A stretch of DNA of 64,000 nt from an uncultured Acidobacteriota bacterium (GCA_963773005.1 CAVYZR010000006.1:588805-652804); one strand, 5' to 3'. Shown: positions 6,481 through 63,245, counted from the stretch's first letter. Notes: a model not told the origin generated them from the letters alone. Program-made: numbers and translations.

Positions 6481-6813
6481 GACGACTGACGACACACGAC
6501 AGTCGGGAGTCGGGGGTCGGAAGTCGGCAATCACAGTCGGCAGTCTGAGTCGGCAGTTCCAGTCTCATCCGGGGGACTTCGTCCCCCGGACCCCCTTACA
6601 CGCTCGCTCGCGGGGACCCCGACGCCCCGCTCCGCTCGCGTGGCTCACTCGCTACGCTCGTGCGCGCCACTAATGAGATGGCTTCTAGTCGCATCGCCTC
6701 CCCGCGCCCTGAAGGCGCTCGATACTGACTGAGACTGCCGACTCGGACTATCGACTCAGACTGTCGACGGTGACTCTCGACTCTCGACTCCCGATTCCCG
6801 ACTGCCGACTGTC
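6481..6813. repeat. composite intergenic element: GTCGGNN heptamer arms flanking an R1 core
   Basis: Left arm 6481-6565 is (GTCGGNN)n. Right arm 6721-6813 is the reverse-complement word (NNCCGAC)n. The R1 element (6569-6686) lies between the arms. Confidence 0.8.
6569..6686 (+). repeat. R1 element copy 1 (~118 nt GC-rich repeat)
   Basis: CCGGGGGACTTCGTCCCCCGG hairpin followed by ACCCCCTTACACGCTCGCTCGCGGGGACCCCGACGCCCCGCTCCGCTCGCGTGGCTC... Positions 6569-6646 are identical to 53026-53103. Confidence 0.85.
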
Positions 6814-6920
6814 TGTCCCTGTCTAGTCCCCAATCCATTCCCATCTCCCTCCCGTAGTACGAGTCGAACGCGCGGTGCGCGCCTCATCACAGGCCGGAAG
6901 AAATGAAAGGAAGGATTCTC

Positions 6921-8537
6921 ATGAAGTTCTCCAGAGGACGGGCGGGAGCGATCGCGGCTCTGGTCCTGCTCGGCGGCGCAATCGGGCAGGGCTCGAGCCA
7001 TCGCGAAGCGCCCGGCATCACCAAAACGCCAAAGCTTGACGGTACCGACTACTACATGTTCCGCAGCTATGAAACCAATCGCAGCGCGTACGTCACATTG
7101 GTCGCCAACTACCTCCCGCTGCAGGATCCGTACGGCGGCCCGAACTACTTCGACCTGGATACCAACGCCGTCTACGAAATTCACATCGACAACAACGCCG
7201 ATGCGGTCGAGGACATCACCTTCCAGTTCCGGCCGTCGACGCTGGTCAAGGACCTGAGCGTGCCGGTCGGCAACATGATGGTGCCGGTCCCCCTCATCAA
7301 CATCGGACAGATCGGGCCGGACGCCGGCGCGACCTCCGCGCTCAACCGCGAAGAGAGCTACTCGGTCAACATCATCCGTGGCGATCGGCGCAACGGCGCG
7401 GGTCAGGCGATCTCGAACGCGGCCGATGGCACGGTCATGTTCCGGAAGCCAGTCGACAACATCGGCAGCAAGTCCATTCCGCAGTATGCGGCCTACGCGA
7501 ACAATCACATCTACGACATCGTAATTCCGGGCTGCGACAACGGCCGGATGTTCGTCGGGCAGCGCAAGGACTCGTTCGTCGTCAACCTCGGCGAGACGTT
7601 CGATCTCGTCAACGTCACCAATCCTTTGGGGCCCGAGAACGCCGAAGCCGATGACCTTGCCGACAAGAACGTGACGTCGTTCGTGCTCGAGGTGCCGATC
7701 GCGTGCCTCGTGCCGTCCGCAAGCCAACCGATCATCGGGGGCTGGACGACCGCGAGCCTCGGCGTGGGAGCGGTCAACAGCACACCCACGTCAGGTGCGA
7801 CGCCGTGCCCCGCGGGAACGCCTGCCGCGCCGAGGCCGGCCGATGGTCCAGGGCTCGTCTGGGTGCCCGACCAGAGCTGCAGCGGATGGGTGCCGAACAA
7901 CCATCCCGCCGCGCGCGGCGGTCGCGGCGCGACGCCGACTCCAGCGGCTGCACCCGGAACGCAGGTCTCGCGCCTGGGCGCGCCGCTCGTCAACGAAGTC
8001 GTGATTGGGTTGCGCGACAAGGACCTCTTCAACTCGGCCTCGCCAACCCAGGACTCGGCGCTTGCGAGCTACGTCACGAACCCGACGCTTCCGGAGTTGC
8101 TCGAGATCCTCTTCGGCGGCGCCGGTGTGCAGGCGCCAAACAACTTCCCGCGCGGCGACCTGGTGGCGGCATTCCTGACCGGCATCCAAGGGCTCAACAA
8201 ACCCGCGACCGTTGTCGCTTCGGAAATGCTGCGGCTGAACACGACCATCGCGCCGGTTCCGCCCGGCAGTCAGAGCCGCCTCGGCGCGCTCGGCGGTGAC
8301 AACGCCGGCTTCCCGAACGGCCGCCGGCCTGGCGACGATGTGGTGGACATCGAGCTGCGAGTGGCGATGGGCGTGCTGTGCCACGCATTCCCGGGCGCGT
8401 TCGGCTGCGGCCCGGCGGACGCGCCATCGGGCCTTCTGCCGTTCACCGACGGTGCGTTCGTCGATGCGTCGTTCTTCGATGCGACGTTCCCGTACTTGAA
8501 GACACCGCTCGGCGGATCACCAAACAGCACACCCTAG
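6921..8537 (+). CDS. DUF4331 domain protein (secreted)
   Basis: ATG at 6921 follows AGGAAGG (alternative start 6903). Signal peptide followed by the SSHREAPGI motif that I recall as the DUF4331 N-terminal hallmark. Confidence 0.8.
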   Translation: MKFSRGRAGAIAALVLLGGAIGQGSSHREAPGITKTPKLDGTDYYMFRSYETNRSAYVTLVANYLPLQDPYGGPNYFDLDTNAVYEIHIDNNADAVEDITFQFRPSTLVKDLSVPVGNMMVPVPLINIGQIGPDAGATSALNREESYSVNIIRGDRRNGAGQAISNAADGTVMFRKPVDNIGSKSIPQYAAYANNHIYDIVIPGCDNGRMFVGQRKDSFVVNLGETFDLVNVTNPLGPENAEADDLADKNVTSFVLEVPIACLVPSASQPIIGGWTTASLGVGAVNSTPTSGATPCPAGTPAAPRPADGPGLVWVPDQSCSGWVPNNHPAARGGRGATPTPAAAPGTQVSRLGAPLVNEVVIGLRDKDLFNSASPTQDSALASYVTNPTLPELLEILFGGAGVQAPNNFPRGDLVAAFLTGIQGLNKPATVVASEMLRLNTTIAPVPPGSQSRLGALGGDNAGFPNGRRPGDDVVDIELRVAMGVLCHAFPGAFGCGPADAPSGLLPFTDGAFVDASFFDATFPYLKTPLGGSPNSTP

Positions 8538-8707
8538 ACAGAAGACAGAAGACAGAAGACAGGAGACAGAAGACGGGAGACAGAAGACGGGAGACAGGAG
8601 ACAGGAGAGCGGCCTGCGGCCCGAGCGAGGCGCGTAGTCGCCGAGCGAGAGCGAGCGGGGGTGGGGCCCCGCGAGCGCCGAAGAATGCTGACAGAAGACG
8701 GAGACGC
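8536..8707. repeat. AGACRGR heptamer array plus degenerate R1-like core
   Basis: About 10 tandem units of AGACAGA/AGACGGG start inside the stop codon at 8535-8537 and run to 8609. 8612-8690 resembles a reverse-oriented, degenerate R1 (GCGAGCGGGGGTGGGGCCCCGCGAGCG). GACAGAAGACGGAGAC recurs in direct orientation at 8692-8707. Confidence 0.65.
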
Positions 8708-62443: not shown

Positions 62444-62446
62444 GAC

Positions 62447-62535
62447 GGCTCAGGGCTTAGGGCTCAAGGCTCAGGCAAAAACCTTCGACCATTTACTCGA
62501 CGATCTTGCTAGCCTTGAGCCCTGAGCCCTGAGCC
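62447..62535. repeat. GGCTCAG heptamer-armed hairpin (homolog of 51725-51842)
   Basis: GGCTCAGGGCTTAGGGCTCAAGGCTCAGG. Loop CAAAAACCTTCGACCATTTACTCGACGATCTTGC. Right arm TAGCCTTGAGCCCTGAGCCCTGAGCC. It fills a convergent spacer from stop to stop. Confidence 0.9.
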
Positions 62536-63245
62536 TACTTAATAGCAGCCGTCATCGTGACCGTCACCTTGATCTCGAGCTCCCCGGGAGACATGGGCGG
62601 TTCGGCGTTCATCGCCATTTCGGCGCGCATGGTCGCCATCGGGCGGGGCGGCGGCATCGACTGGTCACGGTGCACTTCGATCCGCACGACGCGCTCGACC
62701 TTCATCCCGGCGGCTTGAGCCGCGGTGTCGGCCTGCGACCTCGCGTCTGCTACGGCGCGCTGGAGCGCGCTCTGTTCGGCAGTCGCGCGATCTTTCAGGT
62801 CGAATCGGATGCCGCTGACCGATGTCGCGCCGGCGCCTACTGACACGTCGAGGACTTCACCGAGCTTGGGCAGATCGTCGACACGTACCTCGACGGCATT
62901 CCGCGCGACGTAGCCGCGCAATGTCTGCCGATTGTTGGCGTAATCGAACTCGGGCCGTAGCTCGTACGCGGCGGTGCGAATCGCTTCTGCTGGCAGGCCC
63001 ATGCCCTTCAGCTTCTGCATCACGGCCGACATCGCGTCCGCGTTGAGCTTCTGGACTTCGGCCGGCGTTTTCGCTCGGGACTCGGCGGCGATCGTCACCC
63101 ACGCGCGATCCGGCGCGCGCTTGACGATGCCCTCGCCGGCGGTAACGACGACCGGCGCTTCGGTGCTACTCGAAGTGCCTGGTGTCTGGGCAAATGCCTG
63201 CGGTCCTAGCGAGAGGGTCAGCACGACAATTGCGAGCGGCTTCAT
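62535..63245 (-). CDS. SIMPL/DUF541 domain periplasmic protein
   Basis: Signal peptide. ITVTGEG-like VVVTAGEGIVKRAPDRAWVTIAAE...GYVARNAVEVRVDDL, typical of SIMPL proteins. Confidence 0.8.
   Translation of the reverse strand: MKPLAIVVLTLSLGPQAFAQTPGTSSSTEAPVVVTAGEGIVKRAPDRAWVTIAAESRAKTPAEVQKLNADAMSAVMQKLKGMGLPAEAIRTAAYELRPEFDYANNRQTLRGYVARNAVEVRVDDLPKLGEVLDVSVGAGATSVSGIRFDLKDRATAEQSALQRAVADARSQADTAAQAAGMKVERVVRIEVHRDQSMPPPRPMATMRAEMAMNAEPPMSPGELEIKVTVTMTAAIK

Follow-up and report, generated by a model that had tools for sequence, protein, structure and literature searches.

Hairpins with tandem heptanucleotide arms in the gene spacers of an uncultured Acidobacteriota bacterium

In a 64,000-nt stretch of DNA from an uncultured Acidobacteriota bacterium (GCA_963773005.1, CAVYZR010000006.1:588805-652804; the whole stretch is called the window below), ten spacers between genes are occupied by hairpins whose arms are tandem arrays of a 7-nt word and of its reverse complement. 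Comparison with near-identical strains points to a mechanism acting at the DNA level that keeps the two arms matched, and to a requirement, or at least a tolerance, for a hairpin at gene ends. We lean, with some reserve, towards reading the elements as heptameric simple sequence repeats (SSRs) that expand by slippage, whose arms are kept complementary by arm-to-arm interaction and which serve as 3'-end hairpins lacking a U-tract.

Heptamer arrays and their pairing

Arrays were sought in the window with Tandem Repeats Finder and with a self-match scan over periods 2-21. The scan found 15 arrays of period 7 (626 nt in total, 3-12 units each), compared with none at periods 2-6 and 8, and period-7 arrays were close to zero in 20 composition-matched shuffles that approximately kept the dinucleotide content. 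Period 7 is the sole enriched short-period class by this measure; the signals at 14 and 21 fall at multiples of 7 (Tandem Repeats Finder also lists higher-order periods of 14 and 28), and the signal at 13 comes from mixed 6+7 units in GTCGGNN arrays together with a separate 13-mer array. At least six words occur in the 64 kb. Fourteen of the 15 arrays sit in ten inverted pairs, for which the RNA minimum free energy (MFE) lies 3-11 standard deviations below that of dinucleotide shuffles, no shuffle matching it. All of the elements are intergenic and none is coding.

These results bear out much of the original prediction, made from the sequence alone. Both detection programs placed the elements where it had put them, and their non-coding status, their folding below dinucleotide shuffles (z -3 to -11 for the ten pairs) and their anatomy were as described, with tandem 7-mers as both arms, several words, and arms that abut or overlap stop codons (both flanking stops at element E3, the superoxide dismutase stop at E6). 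The array at 8536-8609 is direct rather than inverted, also as proposed (z about +0.3). Two details need correction: the loops, given as 17-70 nt, reach about 170-245 nt in E1, and the right arms are in general tandem copies of the reverse-complement word but are degenerate at 13667-13811 and 33237-33316.

The twelve elements are listed here in order of position; z is the distance of the MFE from dinucleotide shuffles in standard deviations.

E1, 6481-6813: GTCGGNN/NNCCGAC hairpin, arms about 6481-6560 and about 6727-6813, MFE -180 kcal/mol, z -10.5; the centre of its long "loop" (6561-6686) is a copy of an unrelated GC-rich dispersed repeat. Separates a TonB-dependent receptor gene (stop 6479) from a DUF4331 gene (start 6903), both on the + strand (co-directional).
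E2, 8536-8609, + strand: direct AGACAGR array of about 10 units, purine-only, beginning at the DUF4331 stop codon; no inverted partner and no fold (z +0.26).
E3, 9709-9859: CAGCTKC hairpin, arms 9710-9749 and 9794-9855, z -10.9. Occupies the entire spacer between the convergent DUF4198 gene (stop TGA 9706-9708) and tadA-like deaminase gene (stop 9860-9862).
E4, 13667-13811: GGTTCAR hairpin, left arm 13670-13748 (about 11 units), right arm (about 13760-13811) a degenerate TGAACC array, z -9.8. Lies 6 nt past the stop of a LuxR-type response regulator gene and is followed by a sigma-54 fragment (co-directional).
E5, 16311-16399: CAGCTTC hairpin, arms 16311-16348 and 16368-16399, z -6.0. Takes up the 93-nt spacer between an unknown gene and a DUF2277 gene, co-directional on the minus strand; its arm stops 5 nt short of the DUF2277 start codon.
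E6, 33237-33316: TAGGAGC/AGCTYCY hairpin, right arm degenerate, z -3.15, the weakest fold of the ten. Lies between convergent AhpC/TSA and Fe/Mn superoxide dismutase (SOD) genes; the SOD stop codon falls within its last TAGGAGC unit.
E7, 33926-34058: CAGCTNC hairpin, loop about 70 nt, z -4.8. Lies between the nadA stop and the SOD start, co-directional on the minus strand.
E8, 35196-35392: GTCGNNN/NNNCGAC hairpin, arms 35196-35285 and 35291-35391, z -11.2. Fills the spacer from the stop of an MqnC/CofH-like radical-SAM gene to the nadA start, ending 1 nt before the start codon.
E9, 51725-51842: GGCTCAG hairpin, 8 perfect units at 51725-51782 and 4 units at 51814-51842, z -6.6. Lies between the stop of a cysteine desulfurase (csd) gene and the start of a vitamin K2 (VitK2) biosynthesis gene, co-directional.
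E10, 54501-54514: two-unit GAAGCTG stub in the sufS-sufU spacer.
E11, 59411-59492: CTTCCAG hairpin, arms 59414-59445 and 59463-59492, z -6.7. Fills the sufA-sufB spacer (co-directional), beginning at the stop codon and ending 1 nt before the sufB start.
E12, 62447-62535: GGCTCAG hairpin, arms 62447-62475 and 62511-62535, z -10.1. Fills the spacer of the convergent RmuC and SIMPL genes.

E9 and E12 have in common the word GGCTCAG and a homologous 30-nt loop, i.e., they are paralogues at unrelated loci, which indicates that whole elements can be copied between loci. The loops of the four CAGCTKC elements are unrelated to one another. Units of GGGAATC and GGGAGTC are present occasionally, in E1 and E8 only, and the words CAGCTTC, GGCTCAG, GGTTCAG and TAGGAGC have no fourfold runs of three G.

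The window has a G+C content of 62-68%. The closest named homologues of its SufB belong to Vicinamibacterales and other Acidobacteria, and the host is an uncultured, Vicinamibacterales-like soil acidobacterium. Background density was taken from 80 metagenome loci anchored on NadA, from relatives at no more than 78% identity: these carry 9 arrays in 366 kb, as against 15 in the 64 kb of the window, a difference of about tenfold. A search of the window against Rfam matched two tRNAs and a cobalamin riboswitch (37156-37297, 77.6 bits, in a divergent spacer upstream of a 751-amino-acid open reading frame, ORF, at 37353-39608), and no heptamer element.

Turnover at orthologous spacers

Three ENA contigs (L001-L003), whose SufB is 100% identical to that of the window by BLASTP, align to its 47-64 kb region at 90-97% nucleotide identity, mostly 94-96%, and bear heptamer hairpins at the spacers of the window. 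The elements could in principle have been confined to the window, or have arisen as assembly artefacts of repeat-rich long-read contigs, and several genes in the window are indeed split by frameshifts of the kind typical of long-read consensus errors. However, the same elements occupy the same spacers in independent ENA assemblies, JGI and short-read contigs contain heptamer arrays too, and at least 120 GTDB genomes built with SPAdes, MEGAHIT and long-read pipelines have arrays of this kind; the artefact explanation is refuted and we give it next to no weight. The split genes, all intact in relatives, encode DUF4198 (8661-9761, with 9421-9708), cysteine desulfurase (51852-53016) and ThiF/rhodanese (59884-61050) proteins, and the splits are likely consensus indels from long reads or pseudogenes. 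The DUF4198 gene also contains an 18-mer tandem repeat at 9478-9554.

Comparing unit counts at orthologous spacers had been suggested with the original prediction, and the counts do differ, in steps of whole units, between orthologous arms of strains that share 94-96% identity. At the csd-VitK2 spacer (E9) the 5'/3' arms hold 4/8 units in the window, 4/about 4 in L001 and 5/5 in L003, and at the SIMPL-RmuC spacer (E12) they hold 3.5/4 in the window and 4/8 in L001. The word can change as well, and in both arms together. At sufA-sufB it is CTTCCAG/CTGGAAG in the window and in L002, and CTRTCAG/CTGAYAG in L003, a swap that consists of four compensatory C-G to U-A pairs, one per unit.

At two sites the loop is turned round with respect to the genes on either side. 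Once reverse-complemented, the loop of E9 in L003 is identical to that of the window at 31/34 positions, compared with 19/38 in the gene-anchored orientation, and the E12 loop of L001 agrees at 31/41 positions flipped vs. 22/40 unflipped. Such flips are expected from recombination or template switching between inverted repeats, and they suggest that the arms interact as DNA.

Spacers also differ in how complete the element is. The sufA-sufB series runs from a 2-unit seed (L125) and a single direct, start-adjacent array (L004) to full hairpins (L003, L002, the window and L215). In L215, whose SufB is 92% identical, the CTTCCAG hairpin is kept with a much larger loop, so an element can persist at a site while its parts turn over. 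The sufS-sufU spacer holds a full hairpin in L002, stubs of 2-3 units in the window and L001, and a direct array in L003. In all single-arm cases (L004 at sufA-sufB; the window, L001 and L003 at sufS-sufU) the arm present is the one on the side of the start codon.

These comparisons support the following course of origin and change. A short seed beside a stop or start codon would grow in 7-nt steps by replication slippage, and the array would then be copied in inverted orientation. Interaction between the arms at the DNA level, by recombination or template switching, would keep them complementary and now and then flip the loop, and whole elements could be copied to new spacers, as E9 and E12 may have been. 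Mobile elements resembling MITEs (miniature inverted-repeat transposable elements) or REPINs (hairpin-forming doublets of repetitive extragenic palindromic, REP, sequences), moved by a transposase that recognises hairpins, would also produce words that recur across loci and the paralogy of E9 and E12. Their length is not fixed, though, and there are no terminal inverted repeats apart from the arrays. The polymorphic sites, moreover, show neither visible target-site duplications nor the fixed ends of a MITE. The four CAGCTKC elements do not share a loop, the variation is graded (seed, single array, hairpin) and the series from 2-unit seeds argues for growth in situ, and no link to mobile elements was found for comparable arrays in Xanthomonas (Rehm et al., 2015; PMC4692102). 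We regard transposition as highly improbable.

Where a relative lacks the heptamer element, the spacer often holds some other stable hairpin (z -2.3 to -6.2). Unrelated hairpins stand in place of the heptamer element at sufA-sufB in L001 (z -2.3) and at csd-VitK2 in L125 (z -3.7), and L002 has at csd-VitK2 a hairpin of the word CAGGAGA instead of the word of the window (z -5.5). One population (P0018; 10 contigs, SufB 91% identical) is clonal and has no heptamer hairpins. The strains differ in other ways as well: a 711-bp PIN-domain gene segment (49600-50310), between an outer-membrane efflux gene and an adenine glycosylase gene, is present in the window and L003 and missing in L001 and L002.

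The repeat nested in the E1 loop belongs to a second dispersed, GC-rich family of about 125-135 nt that is unrelated to the heptamers. Its copies lie at 6561-6686, 16746-16868, 30618-30718 (- strand) and 53018-53143, with a partial copy at 57110-57172 and further copies in relatives (L003 10890-11030; L001 about 16325-16450). They have paired ends (AGTCTCAT...ATGAGAT) and an internal hairpin (CCGGGGGACTTCGTCCCCCGG), and eight pairs show compensatory changes. No match was found in Rfam at a relaxed threshold. The family is present, absent or duplicated between strains (the Rrf2-csd spacer of L002 has a CACGGATTA/CACGGACAA run in its place), and it may be either a MITE- or REPIN-like element or a structured small RNA.

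Placement at gene ends and possible roles

A spacer table curated by hand from Pfam hits and the gene calls of relatives contains 27 spacers of at least 58 nt, five of them divergent. Seven hairpins are in co-directional spacers, three in convergent and none in the five divergent ones (Fisher p = 0.08), so that under-representation between divergent genes is a trend only in this window; each of the three convergent protein-gene spacers of at least 58 nt has a hairpin. Arms begin 0-20 nt from the stop codon. In five of the seven co-directional elements the arm ends 1-11 nt upstream of the next start codon, while E1 and E4 end 90-130 nt upstream. The sole tandem array seen in a divergent spacer is of another kind, a C-rich direct array of TGAACCCYT (30893-30953, period 9-10, about 6.7 copies) that separates tRNA-Arg from a molybdopterin-binding gene and has no fold (z -0.7).

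Like intrinsic terminators, the elements are GC-rich stem-loops directly after a stop codon, including between convergent genes. Unlike them, they have stems of 25-90 bp rather than 5-15 bp, many are inside operons where they end at the next start, and they have no U-tract: no T-run was read in the sequence 3' of any element on either strand. Stem-plus-T-run sites are not in excess across the window (32 found vs. about 36 expected from shuffles; 12, 8 and 12 found vs. 12.5, 11.6 and 11.5 expected), and the heptamer elements are absent from the lists of such sites. Because no U-tract follows the hairpins and stem-plus-T-run sites are not enriched, a plain canonical terminator role does not fit, in agreement with the doubt voiced at the outset. 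Of the two operon cases on which that doubt had leaned, the sufA-sufB hairpin (E11) is real, whereas the adaptor-pump spacer contains a direct array. In that spacer (44525-44592, HlyD adaptor gene to AcrB pump gene) four perfect copies of the 13-mer GGCCACGGATCAC are followed by CACGGATTA 9-mers.

The 3' end of nadA, where the window has E7, carries different hairpins in different lineages. In the closest metagenomic relative (L135) a short GC stem precedes TTTT, after which comes sod. In L149 the hairpin is built of GTCGACA/TGTTSAC heptamers and TTTTT comes after it (z -3.2); L152 has a GGTCGTT/AACGACC hairpin (z -7.0), L174 three units of CAGTGGT opposite 21 of the ACCACTG type, and L139 (3625-3760) an inverted pair of octamers, GATTCAGA/TCTGAATC. 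Downstream of nadA in L188 (2265-2295) there is a (TTTAGGG)n array, the unit of plant telomeres. The variety of hairpins at one gene end, the substitute hairpins in relatives and the lack of a terminator excess together make a role at the transcript level the most economical functional reading. The elements build up solely at gene ends, where the transcript would fold into a very stable stem-loop, and the hairpins would serve, or replace, termination without a U-tract, 3'-end protection or RNase III processing, also between the cistrons of operons. A role at RNA 3' ends is thus probable, and it is plausible that hairpins between convergent genes act in bidirectional termination.

The position of the start-side arm raises the alternative of translational or intercistronic control, with this array acting as a leader or being bound by a factor (S1, Csp or CsrA, for instance), as has been suggested for TAACTGA repeats, and the upstream arm sequestering it. 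Five of the seven co-directional elements do have the end of their 3' arm 1-11 nt from the start, lone arms are always start-proximal, few genes (about 10/35) have a Shine-Dalgarno-like motif, and the TAACTGA repeats of Beggiatoaceae are similarly placed (MacGregor, 2015; PMC4679880). But the three elements in convergent spacers have no start codon near them, E1 and E4 stop well ahead of the next start, and the start-side arm is purine-rich only for CAGCTNN words and the opposite for GGCTCAG and GTCGGNN. We consider such control decidedly unlikely.

Two other ideas about the words were discarded. The purine-rich arm as a general source of Shine-Dalgarno sequences was rejected because GGCTCAG and GTCGGNN elements put their pyrimidine-rich arm beside the start. 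CTGA or TGA within the words as a three-frame stop was rejected because CAGCTTC/GAAGCTG arrays hold no stop codon on either arm. As to the motif count, a Shine-Dalgarno-like motif in the 20 nt upstream is seen for only about 10 of the 35 curated start codons, whose positions are themselves uncertain, and the lineage may rely little on Shine-Dalgarno pairing.

Several observations weigh against a role for the hairpins at RNA 3' ends. Among the seven co-directional elements the sense strand folds better in four and the antisense in three, and this lack of preference means that there is no G-U signature of selection on mRNA. Arms can be strongly unequal (4 vs. 8 units). The stems of E5, E8 and E11 end 1-5 nt from the downstream start, where they are expected to hinder translation. 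The spacer-type bias is not significant on the window alone (p = 0.08), and our explanation does not account for the preference for a 7-nt unit. Finally, at the corresponding positions the spacers of L004 (about 80% nucleotide identity) and of L125-L134 and L216 (SufB 89-91% identical) measure 13-36 nt and contain a 2-unit seed at most; the elements are dispensable.

The absence of sense-strand bias, the element-free relatives, the unequal arms and the start-abutting stems keep a neutral or selfish origin as a serious rival: slippage and hairpin-templated repair would enlarge arrays wherever they are tolerated, outside genes and promoters, with no function. It is also consistent with rapid gain, loss and replacement between strains 94-96% identical, with spacers that exist largely because an element sits there, and with the colonisation of the same spacer type by a second, unrelated repeat family. 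On the other side, separate lineages independently hold some hairpin at the same 3' spacers, including one like a canonical terminator, every convergent spacer is occupied, and the sufA-sufB element persists across lineages with SufB only 92% identical. We take the neutral account to be possible but, on balance, doubtful.

Known heptamer repeats and wider distribution

Knowledge of tandem heptanucleotide repeats in bacteria goes back to 1990. Short tandemly repeated repetitive (STRR) sequences are reportedly tandem heptanucleotides of heterocystous cyanobacteria, with the words CCCCAGT, TTGGTCA and CAACAGT, and small dispersed repeats are said to be nested in cyanobacterial heptamer arrays, which would be a parallel to the GC-rich repeat inside the loop of E1. 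STRRs come in several words per genome and are intergenic, also inside operons (pecE-pecF). The elements described here are likewise tandem heptanucleotides of several words in intergenic positions that include operons; their host is not a heterocystous cyanobacterium, its base composition differs, and the classical STRR words (CCCCAGT etc.) were not found here. The closest counterpart is in Xanthomonas, which has a G+C content of about 65%.

Arrays of GGGAATC in X. campestris and X. axonopodis have 2-26 units and are 89-93% intergenic, with 70-75 convergent inverted pairs per genome that are able to form stem-loops (Rehm et al., 2015; PMC4692102). They lie within about 50 nt of the stop of the upstream ORF, or overlap it, and are under-represented between divergent ORFs; their length differs between the two species while their type (single or paired) is kept, most are transcribed, and they form G-quadruplexes in vitro (Rehm et al., 2015). 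The elements of the window share with them tandem 7-nt units, convergent inverted stem-loop pairs (ten here), intergenic and stop-adjacent placement, length polymorphism and a high-GC host, and E1 and E8 even contain GGGAATC/GGGAGTC units with the G-rich arm first. They differ in phylum, in the number of words (six or more in 64 kb, against the single one searched for there), and in that pairs are nearly the sole architecture (14/15 arrays). Inversion of the loop, replacement of the word in both arms and nested repeats, documented here, are unreported in that study. Most words here lack G-tracts, so the architecture is the same but lies outside the G-quadruplex-forming sequence family, and the G-quadruplex reading does not carry over.

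In Geobacter metallireducens, sites of tandem hepta- or octanucleotides (e.g., MTYCTGA) with 4-5 units are multicopy and intergenic, "mostly found in pairs" on opposite strands, and their annotation is as putative sites of global regulators (Aklujkar et al., 2009; PMC2700814). Pairing on opposite strands is common to these and our elements, and L139 has an octamer pair in its nadA spacer; unit number in the Geobacter sites is small and fixed, and they were read as regulator sites, with no comparison of strains. That annotation, together with the G-quadruplexes of Xanthomonas arrays in vitro and the fact that three 7-bp units make two helical turns, would favour a reading as DNA-level binding or structural sites, i.e., global-regulator or nucleoid-protein sites, cruciforms or G-quadruplexes. 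Against it, several proteins would be needed for six or more unrelated words in 64 kb, G-tracts are missing from most words (CAGCTTC, GGCTCAG, GGTTCAG), and one and the same site can carry different words in different strains. It has very little probability in our estimate.

Other described repeats are less similar. A survey by Mrazek, Guo and Shah (2007, PNAS) found that heptanucleotides dominate long SSRs of 5-11-nt units in some genomes, in non-coding DNA, and proposed polymerase slippage; the dominance of unit 7 and the non-coding location recur here, and the survey treats direct arrays, inverted pairing being apparently undescribed in it. The TAACTGA arrays of marine Beggiatoaceae, which have few canonical ribosome-binding sites, end a few nt upstream of starts, as does the start-proximal arm here; they are direct (one inverted case in 170 sets) and of a single word (MacGregor, 2015; PMC4679880), unlike the inverted elements of several words described here. 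GGGGAYT arrays in Nostoc include only a few pairs (Rehm et al., 2015), whereas our elements are almost all paired, and a Nostoc preprint reports regulatory effects of heptamer arrays near promoters. All told, the elements are of the same kind as STRRs, the heptameric long SSRs of Mrazek and colleagues and, most closely, the convergent GGGAATC pairs of Xanthomonas. REP sequences stabilise upstream mRNA and can act in termination. REPs, the bacterial interspersed mosaic elements built of them and REPINs are known from enterobacteria and pseudomonads as imperfect palindromes, fixed at about 35 nt, whose sequence is conserved and which have a cognate RAYT (REP-associated tyrosine transposase; PMC3116915). 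Our elements resemble them as hairpin repeats in gene-3' and intercistronic spacers, rare between divergent genes; they differ in that tandem arrays of variable length, in six or more words, make up their arms, with no fixed palindrome.

The interpretation offered with the original prediction is accordingly upheld only in part, because its statement that the elements belong to no described family was wrong: the pairs of Xanthomonas and Geobacter and the cyanobacterial STRRs precede it. Inverted heptamer pairs, stop-side placement and a high-GC host are already described. What is new is the Acidobacteriota host, the occurrence together of six or more words in an architecture that is almost exclusively paired and, from the strain comparison, sequence evidence for arm-to-arm interaction of the DNA, the series from seed to hairpin and the substitution by ordinary hairpins in relatives.

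A pattern scan for four units of CAGCTNN in one genome per GTDB species gave at least 120 loci. Among the matches listed, 34 of 120 are from Acidobacteriota (Terriglobia, Vicinamibacterales, Blastocatellia and Bryobacteraceae), and the others include Planctomycetota, Omnitrophota, Verrucomicrobiota, Gemmatimonadota, Chloroflexota, Cyanobacteria, Bacteroidota and Proteobacteria. Many of these loci hold further arrays of other words, and the words of E1 and E8 recur in Moorena loci as arrays of GAGTCGG and ATTCCCG. All loci gathered contain 57 candidate inverted pairs. The arm of CAG/TAG type is 5' (CTG/CTA 3') in 32 of them and 3' in 10, with 15 ties; polarity is here relative to the loop, since inverted repeats read alike on both strands. 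One could conceive of the heptamer hairpins as a phylum-spanning means by which RNA 3'-end hairpins are made and renewed in situ, through 7-nt slippage, inverted duplication and correction between the arms. In lineages without canonical U-tract terminators the long stems so formed at stop codons would take over termination, 3'-end protection or RNase III processing. This is a speculative and rather unlikely extension; if true, a general function of STRR-type repeats would have been missed since 1990, and the arm polarity (32 vs. 10) would reflect a real mechanistic constraint or a dedicated factor.

Inverted heptamer pairs have been known since at least 2009-2015, and their function and the reason for a unit of 7 are long-standing questions. 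The window and its near-identical relatives offer a clear natural experiment, in which unit number, the word of both arms and loop orientation change, and ordinary hairpins are substituted, at the same spacers. If the proposed role at RNA 3' ends is false, the elements are simply the load of slippage-prone repeats of another lineage. If it is true, it would explain a large share of the intergenic DNA in Acidobacteriota, among the most abundant soil phyla, and would matter for the prediction of operons and terminators in this phylum.

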